A stretch of 64,000 bases of DNA from an uncultured virus (IMG/VR IMGVR_UViG_3300027977_001066) (lineage: Duplodnaviria > Heunggongvirae > Uroviricota > Caudoviricetes): the IMG/VR virus record IMGVR_UViG_3300027977_001066. The stretch is one strand, 5' to 3'. A program made the translations under genes and the position numbers. Every line of letters begins with the position of its first letter. The stretch's first letter is position 1. Under the pieces are notes generated by a model that saw nothing but the letters and a program-made list of their open reading frames with translations, did no database searches and was not told where the DNA came from. Shown piece by piece: positions 10,352-53,706 of the stretch.

Positions 10352-10693
10352 ATGAAAAATTACAGATCCGCAATGGGAAAAACAATTGATATGGCTGCAT
10401 TAGCCTCACGCAATGAGCATACAAGAGCAGTTGGTAATATGCGTGTTAATGCTAGGGGTGACACAATTGATGCTACTGGTAGAATTATTAAACCAGTAAC
10501 TGACAAAGTAAATGAAGCCTATAGTAAAACTGTAGGAAATAAATCGGCACAGGTTACAAAAAGACCTGTTACACCTAAACCACAATTCAAAGAAGAACTT
10601 ACTCCGGCAGAAATTGAATTAGAAGAAAGTTTTGAAGATGATATTGAAGTGGAAAAAATTAAAGCAGAAGAAATTAAAAAAGGAAAAAAATGA
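10352..10693 (+). CDS. Hypothetical protein
   Basis: AAGGA RBS; AVGNMRVNARGD motif. Confidence 0.7.
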   Translation: MKNYRSAMGKTIDMAALASRNEHTRAVGNMRVNARGDTIDATGRIIKPVTDKVNEAYSKTVGNKSAQVTKRPVTPKPQFKEELTPAEIELEESFEDDIEVEKIKAEEIKKGKK

Positions 10694-11067
10694 ACAAATA
10701 TAGTAAACCAGCGTTTAGTCCTACAAAAGTTGACAAATTAACCTTCTTTAAGGACCACATTATTGTATCCGATATGAAGTTTGATGAGCGTATCACAGCT
10801 GGTGGAATTATTTTAATGGATGACGACAAGAAAAGTTCTGGCATTCGACCACGTTGGGCAAAGATTTATGGATTGGGTCCTGATGTGAAGGATCCGGAAC
10901 TACAAATCGGTAAGTACATCCTCATTAGTCACGGACGTTGGACACGGGGTATTACAGTTGAAACACCAGAGGGCAAACAGACGTTGCGTAAAGTCGATCC
11001 TAATGATATACTATTGATATCGGATGAGCCGATGTATGATGAAACAATTAGCGACAAGGTATACTAA
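10690..11067 (+). CDS. groES: GroES-like co-chaperonin
   Basis: D.IIV...ERITAGGIIL mobile loop, GLGP and DILLI at the C-terminus. Confidence 0.75.
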   Translation: MNKYSKPAFSPTKVDKLTFFKDHIIVSDMKFDERITAGGIILMDDDKKSSGIRPRWAKIYGLGPDVKDPELQIGKYILISHGRWTRGITVETPEGKQTLRKVDPNDILLISDEPMYDETISDKVY

Positions 11068-12570: not shown

Positions 12571-13359
12571 TTATGCGTACATCTTTAGGATGTGTTCAAT
12601 AATTTTGTGACGTTGTATGTCACGCATATCAAACTTGCAAGACGCTAAACCTGGAATCACCCCCTTTCCACTCTCTAGCTTTGTTAAAAGGTCTAGGAGG
12701 CCATTCTCAGGCGTGCGTCTATCTGTCTGTTCTACATCACCAGTGATGACAATCTTACTACCGATCCCGATACGTGTCATAATCATTTTTAACTGGCTTG
12801 GGGTTGCATTTTGAGCTTCATCAAGTACAATCCAACTGTTTTTAAAGTTGCGACCTCTACAGAACGCTAGTGGAGCTATCTCTACTATTTGTTCTTCTAA
12901 CATATCGGCAATTTCTTTAGTTGAATAATACTCACGTAATACATCTAATAAAGGTCTTGTCCAAGGTTCCATCTTTTGATTGATATCCCCTGGTAAAAAA
13001 CCATGTTTTTCATCATCAACACCTACTGCGGGTCTGGATAGAATAATCCTATCACAGTCTCCGTTTCGCATTGCTTTGATAGCGGCTTGCATTGCAAGAT
13101 ATGTTTTTCCTGTCCCTGCAGGTCCCGAAACCACGACTATATCTGTCTTGTCATCAAGTAGTGCTAATATGTATTTTTCTTGATTAATGGATTTTGGGAT
13201 GAGTTCTACGGATTTACGTACCCTTGGTTTTTGCGTTACTTGTGCTTGTGAAAAGTCAATTGTTTTTGATTCTTTCGTATAAAATGTATTTCCTTCTTTT
13301 TTACTGTGTGAGAAGCGTGTGTCCTGTGTTCTTAATGCGCTAGTTTTTCTTTTGCTCAA
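12571..13359 (-). CDS. phoH: PhoH-family ATPase
   Basis: GPAGTGKTYLA, ILSRPAV, GFLPGD, IAPLAFCRGRNF, LDEAQN, ITGDVEQTD. Confidence 0.95.
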   Translation of the reverse strand: MSKRKTSALRTQDTRFSHSKKEGNTFYTKESKTIDFSQAQVTQKPRVRKSVELIPKSINQEKYILALLDDKTDIVVVSGPAGTGKTYLAMQAAIKAMRNGDCDRIILSRPAVGVDDEKHGFLPGDINQKMEPWTRPLLDVLREYYSTKEIADMLEEQIVEIAPLAFCRGRNFKNSWIVLDEAQNATPSQLKMIMTRIGIGSKIVITGDVEQTDRRTPENGLLDLLTKLESGKGVIPGLASCKFDMRDIQRHKIIEHILKMYA

Positions 13360-15357: not shown

Positions 15358-16152
15358 ATGGATCATTATCAAACGTTGGGTGTAGCTAAAAATGCTACCC
15401 CTGACGACATAAAAAAATCATATCGTAAACTAGCAAGTAAACATCATCCTGATAAGGGAGGAGATACTGCTACGTTCCAAAAGATAGAAGAAGCATATCG
15501 TATTCTTAGTGACCCGAATCAACGACAGCAATATGATAATCCAATGCCTCAAGGTAATCCTTTTGGAGGATTTCAGGGTGGAGGATTTAATTTTAACGGT
15601 GATTTAAATGATTTGTTTGGACAAATGTTTCAACAACATAATCGTAGAAATCCAAACATACCCCATACATTTAGAACAACAGTTAGTGTCACACTTGAAC
15701 AAGCATATTACGGAGACACGCAAAATTTAAAACTACAAACACCTAATGGCACTCATGCTATCAACATACAAATACCTAGAGGTGTAACTCACGGAGCACA
15801 AATGCGTTATGAAAACGTTATACCACACTCTATATTACTTGTTGAATTCCACGTTCAAAATCATTTAAAGTATGAAAGAAGAAATAATGATTTATACTGT
15901 AATCATACTATATCAGTTTTAGACTTAATAGTTGGTACTGAATTTGAATTCAATACCCTCGCAGGTAAAACATTATTAGTAAAAATACCACCAAAAACAC
16001 AACCGCATATGCATTTAAAAATAGCAGGAGAAGGCATGCCCATTGTCAATAGTAATCTTTTTGGCGACCAAATCATATTGATTAAACCAATTATACCTGA
16101 TATAATTGACTCTGAAATAACTGATAGCATTATGCGTTTTAAAGCTAAGTAA
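15358..16152 (+). CDS. dnaJ: DnaJ/CbpA-type co-chaperone (no zinc finger)
   Basis: J-domain YQTLGV...HHPDKGG, G/F region and a C-terminal GEGMP domain. Confidence 0.9.
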
Positions 16153-16175: not shown

Positions 16176-18452
16176 TTGACCAACTCACCCGAAATTGAAA
16201 ACATTATTGAACAAGCTATTGCTTTTGCAAAAGAACGTAAACATCAATATTGTACCGTTGAGCATTTGCTACTATCATTAATTAATCACACACCATTTAA
16301 AAAATGCTTAGATAGTTTTGGTGCTGATACTGAATTAATGACTCAGGAAGTAGGTAGCTATCTAGATGGATTACATGCTATTGAATTAAAACATATTGCA
16401 ATGGAAGAAGTTCAACCACGTAAAACAAACAGTTTAGAACGTGTTATGAACCGTAGTGTAACACAAGTATTGTTCACTGGTCGTAGACAAGTTACAACGA
16501 TTGATTTGTATCTAAGTATGGCAAGTGAAGGCAATAGTCACGCACATTACTTCTTATTGAAGTATGGGATTAACAAACAAGAGTTTGTAACTCATTGGCA
16601 AAAAACATACAAGGGAGCTGAATTCACTACTAAACTAAGTGATGGTCAAGCAGATGAAATTTTAGAAGAATATACTATCAATCTAAGTGAATTGGCTAGA
16701 CAAGGTAAACTTGAACCACTAATTGGTCGTGCAAAAGAACTTGATGAGATTGTTAATGTATTGGCTAAACGATTCAAGTCAAATGTATTAATGGTAGGTG
16801 ATCCGGGAGTAGGTAAAACTGCCATCGCAGAAGGTCTTGCACAAACTATTGTTATGGGTGACTGCCCTGAATTTATTCTTAATCACGATGTATATAGTCT
16901 TGAAGTAGGTTCACTACTTGCTGGTAGCAAGTATCGCGGTGACTTTGAAGAAAAAGTTAAGCACGTATTAGACGCATTGAACACAAAAAAGAAAGCCATA
17001 TTATTCATTGACGAAGCACACACAATGAAAGGTAGTGGTGGAGGATCTGGTGGAGGAAGTGTTGACTTTGCTAATATGATTAAGCCTGCAATTACTAAAG
17101 GTACATTGAAAGTTATCGCTAGTACTACTTGGGAAGAGTACTATGAATCATTTGAAAAGGATCGTGCGTTAATGCGTAGATTCTATCGTGTAAGTATTGA
17201 CGAACCAAATAAAGATACAACTATCAGGATTCTCACTGGATTAAGTGAAAGATTGAATGACTTCCATGGTGTTGAAATTACTCCTGAATCAGTTACTGCC
17301 GCAGTAGAAAGTGCTGAACGTTATATTCACGATAGAAAAAATCCAGACAAATCTATCGACTTGCTTGATGCGGCTTGTGCTAGACAGAAAGTTGATGGCA
17401 ATAGGGGAATTCAGATTACTAAAGATATGATTTTTCAGCAAGTTGAACGCTTTACAGGTGTCCCTGCTGATAAACTTAGTGGTGATAACATGGATCGTAT
17501 TCAAACACTTGAAGTTAATGTCAAGGGTAAACTGTATGGACAGGATGAAACAGTTGATAAGGTACTTGAACGAGTATATGTTAGTTTTGCAGGTATTGGT
17601 AGTGAGACTAAACCTACAGCAAGTTTCTTGTTCTTAGGCCCAACTGGTACAGGTAAAACAGAATTAGCTAAGTTGTTAAGTAAAAACTTAGAGATGCCAT
17701 TGCTCAAATATGACATGAGTGAATACGGTGAAAGACATTCAGTATCTAGTTTGATTGGACCTCCTCCTGGTTATGTTGGCTTTGGTGACAGTCAAGTAAG
17801 TGGTGGTAGATTAATCAACGACCTAAGTAAGAACCCACATAGTATCTTGTTGTTTGACGAAGTTGAAAAAGCACACCCGGATATCTTTAACATCTTCTTG
17901 CAGATGCTAGATGAAGGGCGTGTAACTGGTAGTAACGGTAAAGAAGTTAACTGTAAGAATACTATCATTATTATGACTAGTAACTTGGGTAGTAGTGATA
18001 GTGAACGTAATAACATTGGTTTTGGTAATCAAGAAAAATCGGGTGAGGATGACAAAGCACTAAAAGAATTCTTTAAACCAGAATTCAGAAATCGTTTAGA
18101 TTTGGTATGTAAGTTTAACAAATTGGATATGCTTGCGATTAAGAAGATTGTTGTTAAGTTTGCAGAACAATTAAAAGATTCATTGTTAGACAAGCACAAT
18201 ATTACATTGAACTTATCAGAACCTGTAGTTGAGTATTTGGCTGAACAGGGTTATGATAAGAAGATGGGCGCAAGACCGTTAGCACGTAAGATTGATGAGT
18301 TGATTCGTGTACCGTTAAGTAAGAAGATTTTATTTGAACGCATTAAAAATAGTGTTATCACAGCGGTTATGACTGATGACGTTATTGAATATAGCGTGAC
18401 ACAAAAATCAATAGCAAGAGTGGGCGAAGATGGGATTATTGAAATTAGTTAA
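16176..18452 (+). CDS. clpA: ClpA-type AAA+ unfoldase
   Basis: N-domain EHLLLSL; two NBDs (GDPGVGKT, GPTGTGKT); KYRGDFE, PPGYVG and MGARPL motifs; IGF loop present; no long ClpB M-domain (758 aa). Confidence 0.9.
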   Translation: MTNSPEIENIIEQAIAFAKERKHQYCTVEHLLLSLINHTPFKKCLDSFGADTELMTQEVGSYLDGLHAIELKHIAMEEVQPRKTNSLERVMNRSVTQVLFTGRRQVTTIDLYLSMASEGNSHAHYFLLKYGINKQEFVTHWQKTYKGAEFTTKLSDGQADEILEEYTINLSELARQGKLEPLIGRAKELDEIVNVLAKRFKSNVLMVGDPGVGKTAIAEGLAQTIVMGDCPEFILNHDVYSLEVGSLLAGSKYRGDFEEKVKHVLDALNTKKKAILFIDEAHTMKGSGGGSGGGSVDFANMIKPAITKGTLKVIASTTWEEYYESFEKDRALMRRFYRVSIDEPNKDTTIRILTGLSERLNDFHGVEITPESVTAAVESAERYIHDRKNPDKSIDLLDAACARQKVDGNRGIQITKDMIFQQVERFTGVPADKLSGDNMDRIQTLEVNVKGKLYGQDETVDKVLERVYVSFAGIGSETKPTASFLFLGPTGTGKTELAKLLSKNLEMPLLKYDMSEYGERHSVSSLIGPPPGYVGFGDSQVSGGRLINDLSKNPHSILLFDEVEKAHPDIFNIFLQMLDEGRVTGSNGKEVNCKNTIIIMTSNLGSSDSERNNIGFGNQEKSGEDDKALKEFFKPEFRNRLDLVCKFNKLDMLAIKKIVVKFAEQLKDSLLDKHNITLNLSEPVVEYLAEQGYDKKMGARPLARKIDELIRVPLSKKILFERIKNSVITAVMTDDVIEYSVTQKSIARVGEDGIIEIS

Positions 18453-19726: not shown

Positions 19727-21292
19727 ATGAGAACTATTGTCATTATGCCGGGAGGCTTTCATCCGTTTCACGCAGGACACGCCGCATTATATAAGAGTGC
19801 AGTAAAAGCATTTAATAATGCTGATGTGTATGTAGCCGCTACTAATGACACAAAAACAAGACCATTCCCTTTTGCTATTAAAGAGAAGTTAGCAAAATTA
19901 GCCGGTGTAGCTGATAAGCACTTTGTGCAAGTTAAGAGTCCATTCAAGGCAGAAGAAATCACACAACATTATAACCCAGATGAAGATGTATTAATCTTTG
20001 TTCGTAGTGAAAAAGATAAGAACGAACAACCCAAGCCAGGTGGTACAAAGAAAGATGGTAGTCCAGCTTACTTTCAACCTTGGACTGGTAAGAACTTACA
20101 GCCATTTAATAAACACGCATATATTGCTTACTTACCAACAGTAGAGTTTGGTCCTGGCATTACAAGTGCAAGTGAAATTCGTGCGGCATGGCCCACATTG
20201 AATGATAAACGCAAGACCGCAATGGTTATGAGTTTATATCCTGTAACACAAAAGAATCCTAAGCTTGCCGCTAATGTTGTTAAGATGTTAGATATGGGCA
20301 TGGGTAACGAATTAGCAGAAGGATCATTAAACGAATTTGTCCCACCCAGTAGTGACGATGGCGGCGGAGATAGTAGAAGTCGTAGAATAAGAAAATTATT
20401 AGAAATTGCTATACAAGTAGCAAAGCAAAAAAATGTTGATGAATTAGGTATGATTCATGGTATGAATATGATAGCAGGTGATGAATTTTTCAATACAACA
20501 GTTGAAGGTATATTATCGGACATAACAGATAAAGAATATATGTTTGTGCTACAAAGTGCTTATAAAACAGTAAAGCAAGGTTTGGCAGAAGCAAAGAAAA
20601 AAAGAAAAAAGAAAAGTAAAAATCGTAGTCTTGGAAGATACTTCTTTCCGGGATATAGTTACTACGGTGGTGGTAGTGAATCAGGTGAGGGTGGAGGCGA
20701 CGGTGGAGGAGGAGAAAGCATCAATCATAATATGACTGAAGGTCCTTTTGTACAACGTATTATGCATCCTAAGAAAGTTAGTATCTATTTAAGATTAGGT
20801 AAAGGTTCCAAGTTAGTTGCAACTGATATACCTTATGAAATATTAGATAGCTATGTAAAGAAAGTTATTCAGAAATATCCACAGTTTAAACCTACTGATT
20901 TCTCATTCAAATCATCTGACAAAGTAACTGAAAATTTGGGTATACCTTATCCTACTACCTATGAACAAGAGAACAACAAGTTCAAACGTAGAGGTCCAAT
21001 GCGTATAACTGCTATGACTGAGTTTGCTACACCTGGTAGTGATGATAGAGAACCGGACGAGGAAGAAATATTGCGTCAATTAGCCGCACAATGGTGGAAT
21101 GGTTCAATACAACAAATGAAGAAAGCCCAACAAACATTACAAGCAATGGGTTGGGAGATTGGTCAAGATGAATCCGATGATGACGATGCCGGTGTATTTG
21201 TTATACGAATAGGTGATGAGAACGGTGATAGCTATATTGCTTTCCCCCATAGTGAATTAGGTTTAAATGAGGATTACCTAAACGAAGAATAA
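19727..21292 (+). CDS. HxGH nucleotidyltransferase-like N-domain fused to multiple xE-delimited modules
   Basis: PGGFHPFHAGH and SASEIR motifs; C-terminal modules begin after LAE/LNE/MTE/VTE. Confidence 0.75.
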   Translation: MRTIVIMPGGFHPFHAGHAALYKSAVKAFNNADVYVAATNDTKTRPFPFAIKEKLAKLAGVADKHFVQVKSPFKAEEITQHYNPDEDVLIFVRSEKDKNEQPKPGGTKKDGSPAYFQPWTGKNLQPFNKHAYIAYLPTVEFGPGITSASEIRAAWPTLNDKRKTAMVMSLYPVTQKNPKLAANVVKMLDMGMGNELAEGSLNEFVPPSSDDGGGDSRSRRIRKLLEIAIQVAKQKNVDELGMIHGMNMIAGDEFFNTTVEGILSDITDKEYMFVLQSAYKTVKQGLAEAKKKRKKKSKNRSLGRYFFPGYSYYGGGSESGEGGGDGGGGESINHNMTEGPFVQRIMHPKKVSIYLRLGKGSKLVATDIPYEILDSYVKKVIQKYPQFKPTDFSFKSSDKVTENLGIPYPTTYEQENNKFKRRGPMRITAMTEFATPGSDDREPDEEEILRQLAAQWWNGSIQQMKKAQQTLQAMGWEIGQDESDDDDAGVFVIRIGDENGDSYIAFPHSELGLNEDYLNEE

Positions 21293-21348: not shown

Positions 21349-22323
21349 ATGGCAACAAAGAAAACAACTCCAAAAGCACCAGCAAAAGCTGTAAAAACTG
21401 TAAAACAATCTACGGAACCAAAAACAGTTCCAGTAGAAAAAGTACAAGAAATTGCTGACCAAGCCGCTCAAGCATCTGCGGCTGCTACCCCAACTGAAGC
21501 CCCGGCTCCAGGACAAGTACAAGTTAACGTAGACTTTCTACGTACAACAAAGGTACACATTGCAATGCCATGTTATGGTGGTATGTTGACAGAATCAACA
21601 TTCATGTCTTTTATCAAGTGGGCAAACACAGCCCGTCAACTTGGTATCGATTGGACATTAGAAACAATGGTTAATGAATCACTTATTAGCCGAGCACGAA
21701 ATACACTAACTGCTAAGTTCTTAGACATGCCAGACGCAACACACCTATTCTTTGTTGACGCTGACATTGGTTGGGAGCCATGGCATCTATTAGTTCTATT
21801 GAACCGTGACGTAGATGTTTGTGCAGGATTATATCCAATGAAGACAATGCCAATCAAGTGGGTAGTTAACGGATTTGAAGGTGCTGAAGAAGGACCAGAT
21901 GGCTTCCAAGAAGTAAGTAAAGCAGGTACTGGTTTCTTATTAATGAAGAAGCACGTATTTGACAAACTGAAAGCTCACCCAGCTGTTAAGCAATATAAGA
22001 ACGACATTGGATTAGATCCAAAGTATGACCAACACTTGAAAACATATTTTGACACAGCAGTTCGTCAGAATCGTTACTACAGTGAAGACTGGACATTCTG
22101 TGAAAACTGGCGTGACCTAGGTGGTAAGATTTGGGTTGACAAGCGTATTCTATTACGTCACTCAGGTAGTTATGTATTCTGTATGGAAAATCAACAACAT
22201 TTGATGAGTACAATTGGACCTATGTTTGTTGCAGAAGAACAAGCAAAGGCTGCGGCAGCACAACAGGTTGCATCGCAAGTTGTCCCAGATAGTAATGGGA
22301 ACGTTACACTAAAAATCTCTTAA
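21349..22323 (+). CDS. GT-A fold glycosyltransferase-like protein
   Basis: IAMPCYGG, ESLISRARN, FFVDADIGW (DxD), GTGFLL, YSEDWTFC. Confidence 0.75.
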   Translation: MATKKTTPKAPAKAVKTVKQSTEPKTVPVEKVQEIADQAAQASAAATPTEAPAPGQVQVNVDFLRTTKVHIAMPCYGGMLTESTFMSFIKWANTARQLGIDWTLETMVNESLISRARNTLTAKFLDMPDATHLFFVDADIGWEPWHLLVLLNRDVDVCAGLYPMKTMPIKWVVNGFEGAEEGPDGFQEVSKAGTGFLLMKKHVFDKLKAHPAVKQYKNDIGLDPKYDQHLKTYFDTAVRQNRYYSEDWTFCENWRDLGGKIWVDKRILLRHSGSYVFCMENQQHLMSTIGPMFVAEEQAKAAAAQQVASQVVPDSNGNVTLKIS

Positions 22324-22329
22324 ATGAGT

Positions 22330-22349
22330 AGCCCCGAAAGGGGCTTTTT
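22330..22349 (+). terminator. Intrinsic terminator
   Basis: AGCCCC-GAAA-GGGGCT followed by TTTT. Confidence 0.9.
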
Positions 22350-22359
22350 AGTGGGCATA

Positions 22360-22391
22360 TTGTCATAGCTTTGTCATCGTACTGTCACAAT
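22360..22391 (+). promoter_or_regulatory. Pho box (three TGTCA half-sites at 11-bp spacing)
   Basis: TGTCA at 22361, 22372 and 22383, matching the PhoB CTGTCAT 11-bp direct-repeat consensus. Confidence 0.75.
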
Positions 22392-22451
22392 TCCTGAAGT
22401 AAATACTTGTGTGTCATAGTGGCACAAAATTAACCACACAAGGAGAAACCC

Positions 22452-23099
22452 ATGAGATTAGAATATTTAGCCGCAAGATTAGTAGCTGTAGAAGCCAAAT
22501 TAGCAAACCTAACTGGTACAACAGTTAATACAGACAGTGCCACAAGCATTGAAGAACTAGACGCAAGACTTTCTGTAGTTGAAGTTCAGGTTGACCAATT
22601 AATCGCTGAGAAAACAGAAGCTCACATTGACGCTATTGTTGCCGCAGTAGCAAATGACGCACCAGTTGACGTAGCAGAAGTAGTTGCATTGTCATCAAGC
22701 GTATTCCATGAAGAAGCCGCTATCATCGTTACTGATGTTGTTACAGCACAAACTGAAGCTGATCCAATTGTTCATACTGAAGTTGCTGATATTGTTTCAG
22801 CCGCTGTTATGGCAGTTGTTACAGCAGAGCCGAAAGTTGTTATTGATCCAGTCGCAATCACAGAAGCTATCATGCAAGCAGTTGCTGATATGCCAGCCCC
22901 AACTCCAGAAGTAGCTCAACAAGTTGCTGATGCAGTTGAAGAAATTATAATTGCGGCTACAGGTGTTGAAGCAGTTACTCCAGAAGTAACACAACAAATT
23001 ATTGAAGCAGTTGCTACTCCTGCAGATCCAGCATTGGACGCTATTGAAGCTCGTTTAAATGTTGCTGAAGCAAAGGTAGACAGTCTATTGGGAAAATAA
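22452..23099 (+). CDS. Highly acidic A/V/E-rich protein with terminal coiled-coil repeats
   Basis: AGGAG RBS; LAARLVAVEAK / LDARLSVVE / IEARLNVAEAK repeats. May be extended to 23152 by a -1 frameshift. Confidence 0.8.
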   Translation: MRLEYLAARLVAVEAKLANLTGTTVNTDSATSIEELDARLSVVEVQVDQLIAEKTEAHIDAIVAAVANDAPVDVAEVVALSSSVFHEEAAIIVTDVVTAQTEADPIVHTEVADIVSAAVMAVVTAEPKVVIDPVAITEAIMQAVADMPAPTPEVAQQVADAVEEIIIAATGVEAVTPEVTQQIIEAVATPADPALDAIEARLNVAEAKVDSLLGK

Positions 23100-23152
23100 T
23101 AACCAGCGTTAAAGGCTGGCTATCAACCCTTTTTAAATCGGACACAAAATAG
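23090..23152 (+). other. Candidate programmed -1 ribosomal frameshift signal and 18-aa extension
   Basis: G_GGA_AAA heptamer (23090-23096), 6-nt spacer, CCAGC/GCTGG stem (23103-23119). The -1 frame reads IITSVKGWLSTLFKSDTK*. Confidence 0.6.
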
Positions 23153-23181
23153 CGTGTCGCTGGATTTGCGTAACCAGTACT

Positions 23182-23205
23182 AAGGGCCTCAAAAGGGCTC
23201 TTTTT
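23182..23205 (+). terminator. Probable intrinsic terminator
   Basis: AAGGGCCT-CAAAA-GGGCTC followed by TTTTT. Confidence 0.6.
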
Positions 23206-23215
23206 AATGGTTATA

Positions 23216-23235
23216 TTGTCACATATTTGTCACAA
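23216..23235 (+). promoter_or_regulatory. Pho box (two TGTCAC half-sites at 11-bp spacing)
   Basis: TTGTCACATAT-TTGTCACAA; TGTCA at 23217 and 23228. Confidence 0.7.
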
Positions 23236-23254
23236 TATTCCAAATAAATACAAG

Positions 23255-24118
23255 ATGAAAACATATCGTTCTATCTTTATCAGTGATGTGCATCTTGGTA
23301 CTAGAGATAGTAAAGCAGATAAATTAAATAATTTTTTAAAACATAATACATGTGATACATTGTATCTTGTAGGTGATATTATTGATGCTTGGAGAATACA
23401 ACAAAACAAATGGCGGTGGAAACAAAGTCACACCAATGTTGTTCGTAGAGTTTTGGGTCATGCTAAACGAGGAACTAAAGTAATATATGTAGCAGGCAAT
23501 CATGATGAATTTTTAAGACCTATGATTCCATATGGATTCAGTTTTGGCTTAGTAGAAATTCACAATCAAATAGAACATATAGGTGCTGATGGTAAGCACT
23601 ATTTAGTAACACACGGTGACTTGTTTGATGGTATAACAAGATTAGCCCCGTGGATAAGTTTTTTAGGAGACAAAGCATATGATTTCATTTTATCGCTTAA
23701 TAGCAAATTCAATTGGATACGTCATCGTTTTGGTTTTGGGTACTTTAGTCTTAGCAAATACCTTAAACACAAAGTAAAAAAAGCCATAGATTTTATGTTT
23801 CAGTTTGAAAAAAATCTAGCGGCATATTGTAAGAAGCGAGGTTTTGATGGAGTTATTTGTGGACATATACACCACGCAGAAATAAAAATTATAGATGGTG
23901 TCACATACATGAATGACGGTGACTGGGTTGAAAGTTGTACAGCACTTGTAGAACATCACGACGGTCGTTGGGAAATAGTTACTTGGACTAAGGAGAAGGA
24001 CGATGTGGATACTGATAATACTAGCAGTTCATATGCACGACTCAAAAGACGTGCCGGGACGGATAGAACTGACATTCCAAGACCAGCACTCTTGCCAACA
24101 GGCTTTAAGTACAATTAA
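23255..24118 (+). CDS. Calcineurin-like metallophosphoesterase of the PlcP / LpxH-like family (putative phospholipase C)
   Basis: YRSIFISDVHLG, LYLVGDIID.W, GNHDE, HGDLFD, GVICGHIH, YMNDGDWVESCTAL. Start reassigned to 23255. Confidence 0.8.
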   Translation: MKTYRSIFISDVHLGTRDSKADKLNNFLKHNTCDTLYLVGDIIDAWRIQQNKWRWKQSHTNVVRRVLGHAKRGTKVIYVAGNHDEFLRPMIPYGFSFGLVEIHNQIEHIGADGKHYLVTHGDLFDGITRLAPWISFLGDKAYDFILSLNSKFNWIRHRFGFGYFSLSKYLKHKVKKAIDFMFQFEKNLAAYCKKRGFDGVICGHIHHAEIKIIDGVTYMNDGDWVESCTALVEHHDGRWEIVTWTKEKDDVDTDNTSSSYARLKRRAGTDRTDIPRPALLPTGFKYN

Positions 24119-24173
24119 ATACAAACTGAAGTTTGACAATTTTAAGGTTATAGCAGAATGCAAAAAACAATAA
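24003..24173 (+). CDS. Small protein MWILIILAVH...KVIAECKKQ (56 aa, two Cys; not in the ORF track)
   Basis: AAGGAGAAGG RBS, hydrophobic N-terminus; overlaps the 3' end of the phosphoesterase in another frame. Confidence 0.6.
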   Translation: MWILIILAVHMHDSKDVPGRIELTFQDQHSCQQALSTIKYKLKFDNFKVIAECKKQ

Positions 24174-24874
24174 GTGATAAAATAACTATCGTAGTCCCTT
24201 GTAAGAATGAAGAAAATTATATTCATCATTTGTTCAATTCACTACGCTCACAAAACATAGGTAACACTAGAATTATCATTGCTGATTGTAGTACTGACAA
24301 TACTAGACAAGTGATAAAAGATAACAGTTATTTATTGAATGTAGAAATCATTGAAGGCGGCCCTGTATCCGTTGCCAAGAACAATGGAGCACGATTAGTC
24401 ACTACTCCGTATATATTGTTTATTGACGCCGATGTTCGTTTCTTTAAGGATACGGTAATTCATGATGCTGTCAATAAAATGGAATCAATAAACTTGGATC
24501 TTGTAGGATTGAATATTAAATCTTATGATAAAGATCCAAGGGCAAAGATTGGATTCACTGCATTTAACTTAATCAATCACACATTAAAATTCTTTAGTCC
24601 TTTCGCAGTTGGAGCGTTTATGCTAACCCGCAAAGATAAATTTGATGAATACGGTGGCTTCCCTGAAAACTTAGTAACAAGCGAAGATTTCTTTTTGTCC
24701 AGAAAATATAGTCCAAAAAAGTTCAGAATAATAAAACATCACTGTGGTCAAGATAGTCGTAGATTTAAAAAGATGGGATATTTTGGTATGGGTAAATATG
24801 TAGTAAAGAATTTCATTAATCGTAATAATAAACAATATTGGGATAGTTTAGACTCATCTAAATACTGGAATTAA
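24158..24874 (+). CDS. Family 2 glycosyltransferase
   Basis: TIVVPCKNEE, IIADCSTDNT, AKNNGA, ILFIDAD, GGF...SED. Confidence 0.9.
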   Translation: MQKTISDKITIVVPCKNEENYIHHLFNSLRSQNIGNTRIIIADCSTDNTRQVIKDNSYLLNVEIIEGGPVSVAKNNGARLVTTPYILFIDADVRFFKDTVIHDAVNKMESINLDLVGLNIKSYDKDPRAKIGFTAFNLINHTLKFFSPFAVGAFMLTRKDKFDEYGGFPENLVTSEDFFLSRKYSPKKFRIIKHHCGQDSRRFKKMGYFGMGKYVVKNFINRNNKQYWDSLDSSKYWN

Positions 24875-48147: not shown

Positions 48148-48834
48148 ATGAGTTATAATAAAACAAAAACTGATCCAGAGTTGGGTCAAAAAGTTCATCT
48201 ACATCTATTAAATATGGGAGTAGAAACACCAATTGACGACACAATTGATTTAGGTGATCGTAAGGATCGCATTGAAAAGATTGAAGGTCATTTCAAGGCT
48301 ATTATGGAAACAATGGGTTTAGACCTAGATGATGATAGTCTCATCGAAACACCCAAACGTGTTGCTAAGATGTATGTGAATGAAATCTTTTGGGGACTTG
48401 ATTATGAAGCATTCCCTAAATGTACAACAGTTGACAACAAGATGCAATATAACGAAATGGTTGTAGAGCGTAATGTTAATGTTCAATCTAACTGCGAACA
48501 TCATTTTGTAGTCATCGATGGATTGGCTACTGTAGCTTATGTCCCTAAACAAAAAGTATTAGGGCTTAGTAAGATAAACCGTATCGTAGAATATTTTAGC
48601 AAAAGACCTCAAATCCAAGAGAGGTTAACAGAGCAAATTTTTCACACCTTACAGTTCATCCTTGATACAGAAGATGTTGCAGTTATGATTGATGCACAGC
48701 ATTATTGTGTTAAGTCACGCGGTGTAGAAGATACAGGTAGTAGTACTGTTACTTGTCGTTTAGGTGGAGGTTTCAAATCAGACCCCGCGGCACGTAGTGA
48801 GTTCTTACAAATTGCTAATAAAGGTTGCAAATAA
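48148..48834 (+). CDS. folE: GTP cyclohydrolase I
   Basis: ETPKRVAKMY, SNCEHHF, GLSKINR, RPQIQERLT, HYCVKSRG. Confidence 0.96.
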   Translation: MSYNKTKTDPELGQKVHLHLLNMGVETPIDDTIDLGDRKDRIEKIEGHFKAIMETMGLDLDDDSLIETPKRVAKMYVNEIFWGLDYEAFPKCTTVDNKMQYNEMVVERNVNVQSNCEHHFVVIDGLATVAYVPKQKVLGLSKINRIVEYFSKRPQIQERLTEQIFHTLQFILDTEDVAVMIDAQHYCVKSRGVEDTGSSTVTCRLGGGFKSDPAARSEFLQIANKGCK

Positions 48835-49031
48835 TGTTAAAAGATAGACGAGTTTTACTAGAGCAAGAAATTACAAAAGCCCACGAAGAGGCTGCTAATT
48901 TGTATTTAGATATTGTTACTAATGACGGTGATATGTCTAGTCCAGAATATCAATCTCTTAAAGATAAAATTACGAATTTACAGTTTGACCTTAACATTGT
49001 AAATAAATTAATCCACAAGGGACACCAATAA
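48834..49031 (+). CDS. Hypothetical coiled-coil protein
   Basis: TAATG-coupled at both ends. Confidence 0.65.
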   Translation: MLKDRRVLLEQEITKAHEEAANLYLDIVTNDGDMSSPEYQSLKDKITNLQFDLNIVNKLIHKGHQ

Positions 49032-49267
49032 TGGGCTTTCGTAAACAAATGGATTACAACAGTGTACATCATCAAATCTATATGAGTGGTGTAGAACTTC
49101 ATAGTAACTATAATGATGGTTTCAATCAATTTGAAATCAAAAAAGATTTACATAAATTAAAATGGTTATTAGATGAAATTATGTCTGATAGTCCTACGTT
49201 TGCAGGTGAAGAAGAATTTTTAAAAGAACATGACCAAACTAAAATGTGGAGAGCACTTTCAAAATGA
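49031..49267 (+). CDS. Hypothetical protein
   Basis: Coupled ORF. Confidence 0.7.
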   Translation: MGFRKQMDYNSVHHQIYMSGVELHSNYNDGFNQFEIKKDLHKLKWLLDEIMSDSPTFAGEEEFLKEHDQTKMWRALSK

Positions 49268-49737
49268 TTTTCAACCACATTAAAAAACTTAAACAAGAAG
49301 GTAAAAAGATTGGTATTACTTTTAGCACATTTGACTTACTACACGCAGGCCACGTTGCTATGTTAAGTGAGGCAAAGAATCATTGTGATTACTTGATTTG
49401 TGGATTACAAACTGATCCAACTATCGATAGACCTGATACTAAGAATAAACCCATTCAAAGTATTGTAGAACGACAAATTCAGTTAGCGGCTTGTCGCTAT
49501 GTTGATGAAGTAGTGGTTTATCAAACTGAACAGGACTTAATTGACTTGTTATTAATACTACCAGTAGATGTTCGCATACTAGGTGTAGAATATGCAGAAA
49601 AAGAATTTACCGGAAGATATGAAGGTGGAGAACGTGGCATTGAACTTGTGTTTAATGGACGTGACCATAGTTTCAGTAGTTCAAGTTTAAGAAAAAGGGT
49701 AGCTGATGCCCAGATTATTAACACTCTTAATAAATAA
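49264..49737 (+). CDS. TagD-like cytidylyltransferase
   Basis: TFSTFDLLHAGH, CRYVDEV, RDHSFSSSSLRKR; start at the ATGA overlap at 49264. Confidence 0.85.
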   Translation: MIFNHIKKLKQEGKKIGITFSTFDLLHAGHVAMLSEAKNHCDYLICGLQTDPTIDRPDTKNKPIQSIVERQIQLAACRYVDEVVVYQTEQDLIDLLLILPVDVRILGVEYAEKEFTGRYEGGERGIELVFNGRDHSFSSSSLRKRVADAQIINTLNK

Positions 49738-49741
49738 CTAT

Positions 49742-49806
49742 AGCGGTCTTTGGACATCATCCCGCTTTACAAATTCTGCTGCCTATGCTATAATACAACA
49801 TAGGAG
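49742..49806 (+). promoter_or_regulatory. Structured queD leader with embedded TTTACA-N17-TATAAT promoter and RBS-occluding hairpin
   Basis: AGCGG/CCGCT stem (49742-49766); CCTATG (49782-87) pairs with CATAGG (49799-804) over the AGGAG RBS. Confidence 0.55.
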
Positions 49807-49812
49807 AAATTC

Positions 49813-50295
49813 ATGGCAAACAAAAAATTCTTTTCAACAAAAACATACAGACAAATAGGTCCTGTTGCATATCGTCAATGGCGTGCTGACAGTCATTGTA
49901 ATTTAATTCATGGCTATGCTATGAGTTTTCACTTTGAGTTTGAAGCTGATACATTAGACGCACGTAACTGGGTAACTGACTTCGGTGGATTACGACCCCT
50001 CAAAGATAAACTAGAGGAATGGTTTGACCATACTCTATTAGTCGCACAAGATGATCCTATGCGTGATGAACTATTGCGTTTAGGTGAATTGAAACTAGCA
50101 AAGATTACAGAAGTAGAACGTACTGGTTGTGAAGGTATATCTGACTTCTTATACGAATACATTAACACAATTTTCTTACCCAACTGTGGTAGTGAAGAAG
50201 CTAAACGTGTTTGGTGTTGCAGAGTAGAGGTACGTGAGACTGATAGCAATATGGCAGGACGTAGTGGTCATAGGGAAGACGGGGAGTTTGCATAA
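49813..50295 (+). CDS. queD: 6-carboxy-5,6,7,8-tetrahydropterin synthase
   Basis: SHCNLIHGY, WVTDFG.L, FDHTLL, VEVRET. Confidence 0.85.
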   Translation: MANKKFFSTKTYRQIGPVAYRQWRADSHCNLIHGYAMSFHFEFEADTLDARNWVTDFGGLRPLKDKLEEWFDHTLLVAQDDPMRDELLRLGELKLAKITEVERTGCEGISDFLYEYINTIFLPNCGSEEAKRVWCCRVEVRETDSNMAGRSGHREDGEFA

Positions 50296-50726
50296 TGTTT
50301 AGTGTACTCAAATTCATTTGGTTGATTAGTCGTTCCTCTTGGAATATTATAAACCCTAATATGAATCCTCTGCGTCATGCGCCCGTATATGTCAAATACT
50401 TTCTCAGTATCCTACTAGGCTGTTTTTGGAGTCTGGCGTTTGGTCTTTACGTTGGTGAACTACTGACTATCGGCTACAACATGATTGGACACATTGCTAT
50501 CATTAGCATGGTGTTTGCTACTTGGGCAGTGTTTCGTTCAGTAGAAAATACTTATGGTCCACGCGGTGGCACAGTAGACTGGCTACGTATGCCAGATTAC
50601 AGTAGCCGTTGTGACGAACTTACTGAACAACAACGACTTGAAAAAGTACAAGAATGGAACAATCGTAATGTTTGGAACGAACCTAAACATTCTGAAAAAG
50701 ATAAAGAAACTTATTACGGAGCATGA
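50295..50726 (+). CDS. Hypothetical membrane protein
   Basis: Two hydrophobic helices; NPLRHAP motif. Confidence 0.7.
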   Translation: MFSVLKFIWLISRSSWNIINPNMNPLRHAPVYVKYFLSILLGCFWSLAFGLYVGELLTIGYNMIGHIAIISMVFATWAVFRSVENTYGPRGGTVDWLRMPDYSSRCDELTEQQRLEKVQEWNNRNVWNEPKHSEKDKETYYGA

Positions 50727-50839
50727 GTATGACTGTTAATGAAATTATTGCCGTAATAATAATGGTAACTGTAGTAGGAATAGTACTATGGGATATACAC
50801 AAAAATGGATTAAGTAAAGAAGATGAACCAAGAGAATAA
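50723..50839 (+). CDS. Small single-TM protein (38 aa; not in the ORF track)
   Basis: MSMTVNEIIAVIIMVTVVGIVLWDIHK...; ATGA coupling. Confidence 0.55.
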   Translation: MSMTVNEIIAVIIMVTVVGIVLWDIHKNGLSKEDEPRE

Positions 50840-50957
50840 AGAACCTGAAACAGAACAATGGTTAGAAGATATAACCAAACACGCACCGGTTGTGATTCCT
50901 ATTGTGGGAGCAGTATTAAGTTTTATGTTGGCTTTTATTGCCATCACAATGGCTTGA
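50823..50957 (+). CDS. Small C-terminally anchored membrane protein (44 aa; not in the ORF track)
   Basis: MNQENKEPETEQWLEDITKHAPVVIPIVGAVLSFMLAFIAITMA fills the gap before 50959. Confidence 0.6.
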   Translation: MNQENKEPETEQWLEDITKHAPVVIPIVGAVLSFMLAFIAITMA

Positions 50958-50958
50958 T

Positions 50959-51177
50959 ATGGCAATAATCAAATGGATTTGCTTTGGCATTATGTTCGCA
51001 GGAGCCATAGTAGTTAGTTTTAATCTAGATCCTATAATAGGCATTGAGCTACTATTTGTAGGCAACGCCGCTTGGTTGGTAACTGCCGTACGTACTAGAG
51101 ATTGGCCTAGTGCCGCAAACTTTGGCATGCTGGCATCAGTATGGTTTCTAGGTATGTTACAATATTATAAAGGATAA
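50959..51177 (+). CDS. Small multi-TM membrane protein
   Basis: Three hydrophobic segments; start reassigned to 50959. Confidence 0.65.
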   Translation: MAIIKWICFGIMFAGAIVVSFNLDPIIGIELLFVGNAAWLVTAVRTRDWPSAANFGMLASVWFLGMLQYYKG

Positions 51178-51179
51178 AA

Positions 51180-51818
51180 ATGTTAGAAACAATTTGCGAT
51201 ACATTAGTTGAAGCATATAGACGCAACTGGATTACCAGTCGTGATGGCAATGTAAGTATTCGTCATCACGACCGTGACCACTTCTACATCACACCCAGTG
51301 GTGTTCGTAAGCAAACGATGCAACCCGACCAGTTTAAGAAGATTGGGATAATCGATCAGATTTGGCAAGAAGATCCGTCGTTGATAGAACTTCCTTATTC
51401 AGATATAAGCCAAGGATTGAGACCTAGTGGAGAATTGCCTTTGCATTTTGGATTGCAAAAGAGACTAGGACAACACAGTGATGATGTAAGAGTTGTAGTT
51501 CATTTACACCCTACTTATTGTATTGCCGCTATGCACGCCGGTATTGATTTAAGCACTATCAGTAGTGCGTTTCCAGAATTGAATCGTTACACTAAGGTAG
51601 CACCCAATGTAAGGGATGTGGCTCCCATTAGCCAAGAGCTTGCGGATCAATGCCATAATCAATTACAATTAGACAATAAAGGCAACATTGCCTATGACAT
51701 TGTAGGTATTAAAGGACACGGAGTAGTAGCAATTGACACAAGCCCCTGGCGTGCGTTTGAACACATTGAACGATTAGAACATATTTGTCAAATCGTATTA
51801 GCATCAGGAAAATATTAA
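51180..51818 (+). CDS. Class II aldolase/adducin-family protein
   Basis: RDGNVS, ITPSG, PSGELPLH, VVHLHPTY, KGHGVVA. Confidence 0.9.
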   Translation: MLETICDTLVEAYRRNWITSRDGNVSIRHHDRDHFYITPSGVRKQTMQPDQFKKIGIIDQIWQEDPSLIELPYSDISQGLRPSGELPLHFGLQKRLGQHSDDVRVVVHLHPTYCIAAMHAGIDLSTISSAFPELNRYTKVAPNVRDVAPISQELADQCHNQLQLDNKGNIAYDIVGIKGHGVVAIDTSPWRAFEHIERLEHICQIVLASGKY

Positions 51819-51819
51819 A

Positions 51820-52455
51820 ATGAGTTACATTGTAGGATCATTGCCACCAATTAAGTGTTGGATAAAACGTGAATTTCTTTATAACTTTGAAAAGGGGCAC
51901 GGAGAATTAGAACCTGCCATCTGGGTTAGTCTTAAAGCATTGCGTGGACAAGTATTTCGTATTGAAAGTTTATTACCCAATTACGGAGCATTGTATGATA
52001 AACTACCTATACACGCTTATGTATGGAAAAAAGACCACACAGCAACGTTACCTATTGATATGTTACAGCTTTGGGACTGTATGGGGTATCGTTTTACTAT
52101 CATTGAAAAAATAGGATTACGCAATTTAGGTGTTAAGTTTCTAGGTAAAGACAAGGAATGGCATTACGGAACTTATTTGTTTACTGTAGACTTTTGTGCT
52201 GACGGCATGGATGTGGACACAGGCTTTACTGAAGTTGCAGAAGAACACAAATCGTTTAATTTTATTAAGTTAGAAAATGGACAGTTTGCTTGTCAGCCTA
52301 ACAACCGTTGCTTGTGGTACGATCAAAGTTTGATTCCCGGTGAAACTAAATTTCCTGATTTTCAGGCGGCTCAAAATCTATGGACAGTAGATGGTACACG
52401 TAAATGGAGTGCAGGAGATGATTGGTTTTATTCTATTGAGGAAAAACATGAATAG
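51820..52455 (+). CDS. Conserved-looking hypothetical protein
   Basis: 211 aa; LQLWDC...EEHKS...GQFACQPNNR. Confidence 0.75.
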   Translation: MSYIVGSLPPIKCWIKREFLYNFEKGHGELEPAIWVSLKALRGQVFRIESLLPNYGALYDKLPIHAYVWKKDHTATLPIDMLQLWDCMGYRFTIIEKIGLRNLGVKFLGKDKEWHYGTYLFTVDFCADGMDVDTGFTEVAEEHKSFNFIKLENGQFACQPNNRCLWYDQSLIPGETKFPDFQAAQNLWTVDGTRKWSAGDDWFYSIEEKHE

Positions 52456-52639
52456 TTTAGAAAAAATTTGGGCAAGAGCAACCGGCCATTTAATGGGTAA
52501 TACAGATGATGACAGGCCTGATGTTCCTATTCTTACATTGGGTGAAGCGAGGATTGCATTGTTCCTAAAGACTTTCTGGGTGGTGCTACATGTGATAACA
52601 TGTTGTGTCATTATAGCAAATACTATACGTCATTGGTAA
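52448..52639 (+). CDS. Small membrane protein
   Basis: GAGG RBS; start reassigned to 52448; C-terminal TM segment ending ANTIRHW. Confidence 0.65.
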   Translation: MNSLEKIWARATGHLMGNTDDDRPDVPILTLGEARIALFLKTFWVVLHVITCCVIIANTIRHW

Positions 52640-52642
52640 TAA

Positions 52643-52861
52643 ATGAACAAAAAAATAGAAGAACTAGCAAAAGAAGCAGGGTTTGACTGGGCATTAAAAC
52701 GAGCATCACTTGCAGGTCAAACTGCTGATAGTGAATCTATTGAAAAATTTGCTGAATTAATTATACGTGATTGTGCTAAACAAGTTAATCACATTTACAA
52801 ACAAGGTGGCGGCACTTGGGGTGAAGTCATCCTTACCAACTACAACATAAAAATCAAATGA
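52643..52861 (+). CDS. Hypothetical protein
   Basis: IEELAKEAG...EKFAELIIRDCA phage-type small protein. Confidence 0.7.
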   Translation: MNKKIEELAKEAGFDWALKRASLAGQTADSESIEKFAELIIRDCAKQVNHIYKQGGGTWGEVILTNYNIKIK

Positions 52862-53706
52862 GTCATTTAAAAGTATCAGAATTATTTTATAGCATTCAAG
52901 GTGAGGGTAGATACATGGGTGTTCCCAGTGTGTTCTTACGAACATATGGATGTAATTTTACATGCGGTGGCTTCGGTATGCCTAAGGGAGAAATGAGTAG
53001 TGAGAGAGATGTTATTGCAATTAAAGCAGAAGATTATACAGATTATAAATCCTTACCGCTTGTCAGTACAGGATGTGATAGTTACGCAAGCTGGGACCCT
53101 CGCTTTAAACATCTTAGTCCTGTTATCGCTACCGATAGTATTGTTGACAGCATTATGGATATACTTCCTCACAAGCGTTGGATGGATGAACACCTTGTTA
53201 TCACAGGTGGTGAACCTCTTCTTGGATGGCAAAGAGCGTATCCAGACTTACTTTCAAATGAAAAAATGAGAAGTCTTAAAGAGATTACATTCGAAACTAA
53301 CGGTACACAAGAACTTAGTCAAGACCTCACAATATATTTACAGAAGTGGAAGATTAACAGAGAAAAGAATGCATTAACATTTAGTGTTAGTCCTAAACTA
53401 AGTATCAGTGGCGAGAAGTGGCAAGAAGCAATTTGTCCTAGTATTATTCGTCAATATGAAAGTGTAGGTTTTGTTTATCTTAAGTTTGTAGTAGCAACAG
53501 AAGATGATGCACTTGAAGCAGATAAAGCAGTAAAAGAATTTCGCAATGGTGGATTTAGAGGCCCTGTATACTTCATGCCATGCGGTGGCGTAGAGTCATT
53601 ATATAAACTAAATGCAAAGAATGTTGCTATTGAAGCAATGAATCGTGGTTATCGTTATAGTGATAGACTGCAAGTACCGTTATTTAAAAATGAGTGGGGA
53701 ACATGA
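52858..53706 (+). CDS. queE: 7-carboxy-7-deazaguanine synthase (radical SAM)
   Basis: ELFYSIQGEG, GCNFTC...GCDS, ITGGEPLL, FETNGT, SVSPKL, RLQV. Confidence 0.9.
   Translation: MSHLKVSELFYSIQGEGRYMGVPSVFLRTYGCNFTCGGFGMPKGEMSSERDVIAIKAEDYTDYKSLPLVSTGCDSYASWDPRFKHLSPVIATDSIVDSIMDILPHKRWMDEHLVITGGEPLLGWQRAYPDLLSNEKMRSLKEITFETNGTQELSQDLTIYLQKWKINREKNALTFSVSPKLSISGEKWQEAICPSIIRQYESVGFVYLKFVVATEDDALEADKAVKEFRNGGFRGPVYFMPCGGVESLYKLNAKNVAIEAMNRGYRYSDRLQVPLFKNEWGT

Follow-up and report, generated by a model that had tools for sequence, protein, structure and literature searches.

Pho-Type Boxes, a PlcP-Family Phosphoesterase and an Exchangeable Glycosyltransferase Slot in Jumbo Phages: A Candidate Phosphate-Starvation Regulon

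Introduction

The phosphate genes known from phages serve in the import of phosphate (pstS, phoA) or in nucleotide recycling. PhoB-controlled genes have been described in cyanophages, namely the P-SSM2 pstS (as cited) and the PhoB targets of S-PM2d (PMC10976474), and for the cyanophage pstS/phoA clusters no single regulatory solution at pstS is reported (PMC3037559). In bacteria, a lipid-remodelling operon pairing PlcP with Agt is described in Pseudomonas aeruginosa (PA3219-PA3218; PMC8528852), and the same pair in Phaeobacter MED193 and SAR11 HTCC7211 (PMC4796936) and in Burkholderia cenocepacia (BCAL2364-2365; PMC13691135). Here we describe a stretch of 64,000 nucleotides (nt) of an uncultured virus of the Caudoviricetes (bases 1-64000 of the IMG/VR record IMGVR_UViG_3300027977_001066, hereafter the window), in which a Pho-type box heads a gene for a PlcP-family metallophosphoesterase, followed by genes for a 56-amino-acid (aa) protein and a family 2 glycosyltransferase (GT2). 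In our reading this phage module is real, widespread and specific, and would work like the bacterial PlcP-Agt pathway.

The record is 74,466 bases long, with an estimated completeness of 21%, and encodes a T4-related DNA polymerase, a clamp loader, an endolysin and PhoH. The closest cultured phages, by DNA polymerase (44-50% identity), are Sinorhizobium phage Phosso, Agrobacterium phage Atu_ph07 and the RaK2-like group, while the near-complete relatives have genomes of 345-367 kb and, in one case, 525 kb. PlcP peptide patterns match an estimated ~1000 stored viral stretches. For comparison, 592 viral stretches were confirmed, and the 80 best of them served as plcP loci, from which 49 distinct upstream regions were kept; the cellular set consisted of the 80 best loci of a genome collection, a few of the top ones being phage contigs inside metagenome-assembled genomes (MAGs).

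The Phosphoesterase

All the phosphoesterase motifs on which a first-pass annotation of the window had based a PlcP-like phospholipase are present in the predicted protein. This is 55% identical to a P. aeruginosa protein with the PA3219-PA3218 locus layout and 44% identical to the Sinorhizobium meliloti homologue, the PA3219-type and S. meliloti proteins being 46.6% identical to each other; a value of 46% is given for the PlcPs of these two species in PMC8528852. The references, from strains other than those assayed, were picked by gene order and by this mutual identity. The neighbours are presumably numbered PA3219-PA3218 in the locus-tag series.

Compared with Escherichia coli LpxH (b0524), the phage protein showed 22.5% identity over 120 aa, and its scores with the LpxH models stayed below the cut-offs (45.6 vs 134 bits for NF003743 and 34.1 vs 190 bits for TIGR01854); the PA3219-type protein was likewise far under them. 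Motif III is GNHD in the phage protein and GNRD in LpxH, a His/Arg site which we take to separate PlcP from LpxH. Of 60 distinct viral copies, 59 had all six metal/catalytic motifs intact, and none had GNRD. The phylogeny against PlcP and LpxH suggested in the first-pass annotation was run with IQ-TREE in its quick mode on 82 rows, made up of the window protein, five references and the proteins of 53 of the 80 viral and 23 of the 80 genome loci: the phage proteins formed one group inside the PlcP radiation, with LpxH on a very long branch far outside the phage/PlcP group. Synonymous differences predominate in the plcP comparisons. As in a plcP locus, a Pho-type box lies 5' of the gene and a putative non-phosphorus-lipid gene adjoins it; an Agt-like open reading frame (ORF) comes next in 29 of the 80 best genome-collection plcP loci. 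From these sequence comparisons, membership of the enzyme in the PlcP family can be considered highly probable. Its last ~38 residues are unconserved and correspond to read-through over the 56-aa gene.

The Box and Its Conservation in Relatives

The TGTCA half-sites start exactly where the first-pass annotation had placed them (22361, 22372 and 22383 in the first array, 23217 and 23228 in the second), and both the terminator that it had seen before the first array, a terminator-like hairpin at 22330-22345, and the TAAATA just downstream of each array (starts 22400 and 23245) were found. In both arrays the start of the last half-site precedes that of TAAATA by exactly 17 nt, a combination observed twice in the window and never in 60 simulated genomes. 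TGTCA-N6-TGTCA occurs three times in the window against 0.33 expected, a count reached by 1 of 100 shuffles; with one mismatch, four occurrences were counted against 7.3 expected, thus there is no general excess of box-like pairs. Beyond both arrays, the whole 74,466-base record holds no further TGTCA pairs at 10-12 or 21-23 nt spacing. The phoH gene, also mentioned in the first-pass annotation, is present in the window on the minus strand (12571-13092 or longer), but it has no box upstream and lies outside the unit, and was rejected as a member of it.

The box is conserved 5' of the homologues; its lack there was one of the outcomes that the first-pass annotation had named as refuting the proposal. 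TAAATA lies near the plcP start in 37 of the 49 distinct upstream regions, and 36 of these 37 carry the box with at most one mismatch (29 with an exact TGT(A/C)A-N6-TGT(A/C)A). The spacing to TAAATA was 17 nt in 22 cases and 27-28 nt in 15. As for the 12 regions in which TAAATA is not close by, four follow a pstS headed by a box, two have a box promoter further upstream and six showed no exact box within 3 kb. Of 148 other TAAATA sites in the plcP loci, only 13 carry an exact box, always at 17 nt, and these precede pstS (4), the family of a 215-aa protein (7) and a 104-aa acidic family (2). The box marked 2 of 215 TAAATA-plus-ORF sites in one near-complete relative and 2 of 200 in another; the marked genes in these two genomes are plcP in both, joined by the 215-aa gene in one and by pstS in the other.

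Compiled from 60 distinct sites, the base profile TGT(A/C)A(T/C)-N5-TGT(A/C)A(T/C) is close to the Pho consensus quoted in PMC8528852. The sites are 11-nt direct repeats fitting that consensus, placed where a -35 element would be, and are shared, at 17 nt, with a known phosphate gene, pstS, whose product behind the box scores above the NCBIfam cut-off. Conservation and the occurrence at pstS support the Pho-type reading of the box first proposed for the window, and the link with pstS represents the best evidence that the predicted signal is phosphate.

Promoter Geometry and Sigma Factor

Genes of this phage group commonly have TAAATA upstream, most often 4-5 nt 5' of the ATG, and at plcP the gap to the first ATG is 4-7 nt in 60 of 61 homologue loci with TAAATA. 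This position suggests leaderless mRNAs, and that of plcP is likely among them. A gp55-type late sigma factor (phrog_12791) was found in all five near-complete relatives, the window fragment lying outside this profile search. The gp55-type sigmas of the five gave no Pfam sigma region match, and the standard sigma-70 region 2 profile had no match in these five genomes. Compared with the T4-type late promoter, only the TAAATA core of a TATAAATA-like element is present, and the start sites are predicted. A phage-encoded PhoB-type regulator was rejected, as the PF00486 domain was not found in any of the five near-complete relatives; the binder of the box is therefore probably host-made, and control of the boxes by host PhoB is judged likely.

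In E. coli phoA the second half-site lies 16 nt 5' of the -10 hexamer, and in the plcP promoters of Hyphomonadaceae (counted by eye) it lies 16 nt from a hexamer that is itself 6-7 nt from the ATG. The phage plcP promoters have 17 nt to the hexamer and, most commonly, 4-5 nt from hexamer to ATG. Their second half-site is 27-28 nt away from the presumed start, which agrees to ~1 nt with its place in E. coli phoA and in Hyphomonadaceae plcP. Relative to the predicted start, the box is in its usual place, and the hexamer is of the phage type. The first-pass annotation had suggested dual control by PhoB and a late promoter; the fixed spacing (17 nt or one helical turn more) and the failure of a sigma-70 promoter search to find a separate promoter at the box regions are better explained by a single composite promoter. 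Host sigma-70 acting on a poor -10 element is possible.

The Glycosyltransferase Slot

The glycosyltransferase had been described in the first-pass annotation as following the phosphoesterase. A GT2 is indeed present, though not directly behind plcP: a 56-aa ORF, previously unnoticed, intervenes, overlapping both the end of plcP and the beginning of the GT2 gene. Compared with four relatives, the GT2 gene has more synonymous than non-synonymous differences. The GT2 was rejected as an Agt, a glycolipid synthase that forms MGDG/GADG from diacylglycerol, belongs to the GT4 family and measures ~330-350 aa; such a GT4 protein is found in the slot of 21 of the 80 relatives. Over these 80 loci (not dereplicated), the slot behind plcP holds a GT2 in 57 and an Agt-type GT4 in 21 (directly in 19, after one inserted gene in 2), two loci being too short, and the two types are interspersed on the quick plcP tree. 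The inserted genes (L011 and L072) encode 216 aa or 296 aa and lie between the 56-aa gene and the Agt-type gene. A phage Agt shares 37% identity with the Agt1-type protein of P. aeruginosa. The sequences support a slot interchangeable with Agt, the bacterial partner of PlcP, and the repeated exchange suggests that GT2 and Agt do the same job, the glycosylation of diacylglycerol. A role of the GT2 as diacylglycerol glycosyltransferase is accordingly worded here as the favoured prediction, held with moderate confidence. Among the matches no close characterised relative of the GT2 was found, distant ones carrying generic names alone; two locus searches with distant GT2 members returned none and one short contig.

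Other Genes and RNA Features

The features of the island are collected in Table 1.

Table 1. Predicted features of the island, in window coordinates.
Feature	Coordinates	Strand	Basis
Intrinsic terminator-like hairpin, closes upstream unit	22330..22349	+	terminator scan
Pho-type box, three TGTCA(T/C) half-sites, 11-nt period	22361..22388	+	pattern counts and homologue upstream regions
TAAATA, predicted phage late promoter element	22400..22405	+	spacing; gp55-type sigma in relatives
Short hairpin, predicted 5' end of 215-aa gene mRNA	22410..22426	+	seen by eye in homologues
215-aa acidic Ala/Val/Glu-rich all-helical protein, no known family	22452..23099	+	homologues, model
Candidate -1 frameshift site, G GGA AAA just 5' of stop	23090..23152	+	open -1 frame
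Two-hairpin RNA element, core ~23138-23183	23130..23190	+	covariation
Hairpin and T-run, likely terminator before second box	23182..23205	+	folding
Pho-type box, two half-sites	23217..23233	+	pattern counts and conservation
TAAATA, predicted late promoter element, 4 nt 5' of plcP ATG	23245..23250	+	gap to ATG in homologue loci
PlcP-family metallophosphoesterase, predicted phospholipase C	23255..24118	+	motifs, identity, tree
56-aa conserved protein, two invariant Cys, beta-beta-alpha-beta model	24003..24173	+	third-position variation; model
Single-domain GT2, 238 aa	24158..24874	+	PF00535 E 3e-22

Third-position variation among 25 distinct ungapped copies fits the frame of the 56-aa gene; the overlapping plcP tail is unconserved, with internal stops in 8 of the 25. 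All 46 viral homologues of this gene lie directly behind plcP. The protein model has a pLDDT of 87; the fold search gave no match at E<=0.001 (best rows PurS, E 0.4-0.6), and there is a weak match with PHROG 3766 (E 1e-3).

The first array heads the 215-aa ORF, which the first-pass annotation had left unnamed. Its product, with 525 homologues, represents the third regular member of the box regulon: of the family's 12 distinct upstream regions, 11 have an exact box at the 17-nt distance from TAAATA, whatever the location of the gene. The protein has exclusively viral ESM Atlas clusters and a helical model (pLDDT 77, pTM 0.44), without any match in Pfam, NCBIfam or PHROG, or by Foldseek in PDB or BFVD. 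A highly expressed oligomeric membrane scaffold is our guess for its role, held with low confidence. In its predicted leader, the hairpin is not significant as a single-sequence fold (z -1.4), and a strong Shine-Dalgarno sequence (22440-22445) lies 3' of it. A -1 frameshift at the end of the gene would add an 18-residue basic/aromatic tail: 9 of 13 distinct homologues have 17-18 open codons in the -1 frame, and 7 of 13 have the GGGAAA heptamer. The hydrophobic moment of the window tail was not above that of shuffles (621 of 2000), giving no sign of an amphipathic tail.

The RNA element is present as a single copy in the window, as it is in both of the whole relatives searched, with two-sided changes at 7 of 10 pairs and 97% pairing in an alignment fitted to the model. 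Each of the 27 examined hits (29 less two repeated ones and a weak one, with one added from a separate search) has a box promoter no more than 2.7 kb upstream; the hits come after pstS, Agt, GT2 or acidic genes, and four directly behind a box promoter; the loci were chosen via plcP, and the box link is partly a matter of this selection. No Rfam match was found, and a crude count for a pseudoknot was unconvincing. Phages that lack these genes can have the second hairpin too, the regulon genes being seen in 46 of 113 distinct contexts, where 40 of 120 loci had only ~300-nt flanks. A GCTGGA-loop-CGTAACCAG hairpin, with no Rfam family, is shared by many other phages (L231-L350), where the first hairpin preceding it is a different one; in one case it lies just 5' of tRNA genes (L340). 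Most likely the element is involved in mRNA stabilisation or processing; possibly it is a small RNA. The hairpin with a T-run behind it was found by folding and had not been flagged in the terminator scan.

The 104-aa proteins are a second acidic family behind the same box at 17 nt (L047:4309-4623, L033:6963-7280, L068), and in two loci their gene is followed by the RNA element. In one locus (L214:10743-11300, of genome G003), a 185-aa ORF with a signal-like start and a C-terminal Phe lies between a box-headed pstS and the RNA element; it is possibly an outer-membrane barrel, and as such a candidate phosphate porin.

Upstream of the island lie a cytidylyltransferase-like ORF (19727-21292) and a phrog_1574 ORF with a DxD-like motif (21349-22323); both are far from plcP in whole relatives, which suggests that the island is mobile. 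Elsewhere in the window, GTP cyclohydrolase, QueD-like and QueE-like ORFs (48148-53706, named via homologues in genome G002) suggest a 7-deazaguanine pathway, and, by sequence motifs alone, three ORFs resemble GroES (10690-11067), DnaJ (15358-16152) and ClpA (16176-18452). Two records (L165, CP090106.1; L164, CP075839.1) are labelled as plasmids, while their size or gene content looks chromosomal.

Discussion

The mechanism we propose would start from the TGT(C/A)A(T/C) repeat of 11-nt period, which precedes TAAATA by 17 nt, or by a helical turn more, at plcP, at pstS and at two genes for acidic proteins, and which hardly any of the remaining TAAATA sites have. Phosphorylated host PhoB would bind it, as suggested by the fit to the proteobacterial Pho consensus, by its position before pstS and by the lack of a PhoB-type domain in the five relatives. 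RNA polymerase carrying the phage gp55-type sigma would then produce a leaderless transcript of plcP, the 56-aa gene and the glycosyltransferase gene. By homology, PlcP, as a Mn-dependent phospholipase C, would cut inner-membrane phospholipids into diacylglycerol and a phosphorylated head group, whose phosphorus would be recycled by host phosphatases. Judging from the slot exchange, GT2, like Agt, would add a sugar to diacylglycerol, keeping the membrane intact until lysis, and phosphorus would be gained for phage DNA; its use for deoxynucleoside triphosphates is something we only infer. We consider the whole chain, from PlcP to the gain of phosphorus, somewhat better than even. A more comprehensive reading, that jumbo phages have a phosphate-starvation regulon of their own, with host PhoB docking onto a polymerase whose gp55-type sigma is devoid of region 4, a contact not described for PhoB, and with a membrane remodelled by PlcP and a new GT2 class of diacylglycerol glycosyltransferase, together with a 56-aa partner, a frameshift-anchored scaffold and an undescribed RNA, is put forward as tentative and rather doubtful.

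Several points weigh against the proposed mechanism. The tree is a quick version with a single long-branch LpxH outgroup. By the criteria used, 7 of the 49 distinct plcP upstream regions have no box. Just one of four near-complete relatives yielded pstS, and the window fragment yielded none. Predicted Pho boxes of cyanophage S-PM2d proved unreliable when compared with PhoB binding in electrophoretic mobility shift assays (PMC10976474). The known contacts of PhoB are the beta-flap tip and, normally, region 4 of sigma (cited in PMC10235972). Since region 4 seems to be lacking in the phage sigma, activation would need another contact, and the literature search retrieved no paper joining PhoB with gp55. 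As for the glycosyltransferase, GT2 and Agt belong to different families, and no transmembrane helix is predicted for GT2, its hydropathy over 19 residues reaching 1.2 at most. At E<=1e-12 GT2 had no match in 350 other genomes of the order of genome G006 and 300 of the phylum of G007, samples that exclude two MAGs holding cassette-bearing, likely phage, contigs. The only RNA match, a 251-nt identical contig at depth 2 (RNA run share 0.08, contigs searched), covers the 215-aa gene alone and comes from one run.

Among the alternatives, the same enzymes under the same Pho control might serve to alter the membrane, and not to release phosphorus, with benefits such as receptor masking, superinfection exclusion, keeping the starved cell intact or lysis timing. 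Lipid remodelling does alter membrane proteins, as discussed for phage receptors in PMC9804370, and pstS occurs in just one of the four near-complete relatives; nevertheless, the same box heads pstS in sister phages, and Pelagibacter phage Mosig pairs plcP with a phosphate ABC gene. In rough terms, a small cell has several million phospholipids and a 350-kb genome 0.7 million phosphorus atoms. By this general-knowledge estimate the lipid pool would be worth several to tens of genomes, and a purely membrane-related benefit is judged unlikely.

Slightly less probable still is that PlcP works as proposed while the acceptor of GT2 is lipopolysaccharide, undecaprenyl phosphate or a protein, the host itself handling the diacylglycerol. 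This would agree with the best PHROG match (GtrB-like, E 1e-7), the best NCBIfam match (TIGR04283, below cut-off), the best PDB match (5tze, residues 8-183, E 2e-10) and the lack of a close characterised lipid glycosyltransferase, but hardly with the strict alternation of GT2 or Agt in all 78 loci long enough and with their repeated exchange.

Improbable, too, is a reading in which a different OmpR-family regulator or an unrecognised phage factor binds the repeats, or in which PhoB acts via sigma-70 and TAAATA serves as a poor -10 element. In favour of it, TGTAA takes the place of TGTCA in many phage boxes, the Hyphomonadaceae plcP promoters have a similar box, are leaderless and carry degenerate -10 elements, and Pho box prediction in phages is error-prone (PMC10976474). 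Host PhoB with the phage sigma is instead favoured by the 60-site profile near the Pho consensus, by the box at pstS, by the 17-nt spacing against 16 nt in E. coli phoA and bacterial plcP promoters, and by TAAATA lying 4-5 nt from the ATG as in other phage genes. Finally, an LpxH-type UDP-2,3-diacylglucosamine hydrolase for lipid A, as JGI and GenBank name the enzyme and as its sole PDB sequence matches (LpxH, E about 1e-3) would have it, is rejected as very improbable, with scores far under the cut-offs, GNHD in place of GNRD and a distant position on the tree, the PlcP-type proteins of P. aeruginosa and S. meliloti bearing the same label.

A virus mining the membrane of its host would represent a new and common class of auxiliary metabolic gene, and the GT2 is a candidate new glycolipid synthase family. 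The fixed geometry of box and late promoter offers a clean in vitro test of a host activator at a phage late promoter. Phage-encoded PlcP is undescribed in the literature searched, which did not cover subscription papers, and virome supplements may list it as lpxH; the main text of a survey of phage phosphorus genes (PMC10987575) has no plcP, phospholipase or lipid. Two virome papers, on oligotrophic sea water and Lake Baikal, report lpxH as a viral lipopolysaccharide gene. Since databases call these phage proteins LpxH, published viral lpxH calls may be PlcPs.

Comparison with Known Systems

LpxH (E. coli b0524, Klebsiella-type PDB 8qk2) shares with the phage protein the calcineurin-like fold family and the metal motifs. 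Among cultured phages, plcP homologues are found in Mosig (Mosig_00120, 48% identical) and in Synechococcus phage S-SRM01 (QPX48289.1, 37%), both annotated as UDP-2,3-diacylglucosamine hydrolase, with no adjoining annotated glycosyltransferase and no upstream TGTCA array seen. Mosig plcP is divergent from the phosphate ABC gene (L162:2903-4738), and the intergenic region has TTAAC repeats, not TGTCA, with TAAATA 5 nt before the ATG.

As in the cyanophages, a phosphate-starvation regulator of the host would be borrowed, here by prediction, and pstS is a member of the regulon; the box is, however, of the proteobacterial TGTCA type and not of the cyanobacterial PyTTAA type, its targets include membrane-lipid enzymes, and its spacing to the promoter is fixed. 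As in the bacterial PlcP-Agt operons, a PlcP at within-family identity has a Pho box 5' and a glycosyltransferase gene 3'. Unlike these, the module is phage-encoded, its partner is a single-domain GT2 with the 56-aa gene wedged in between, its box precedes a late-type element, and the 215-aa acidic gene and the RNA element share the regulon.

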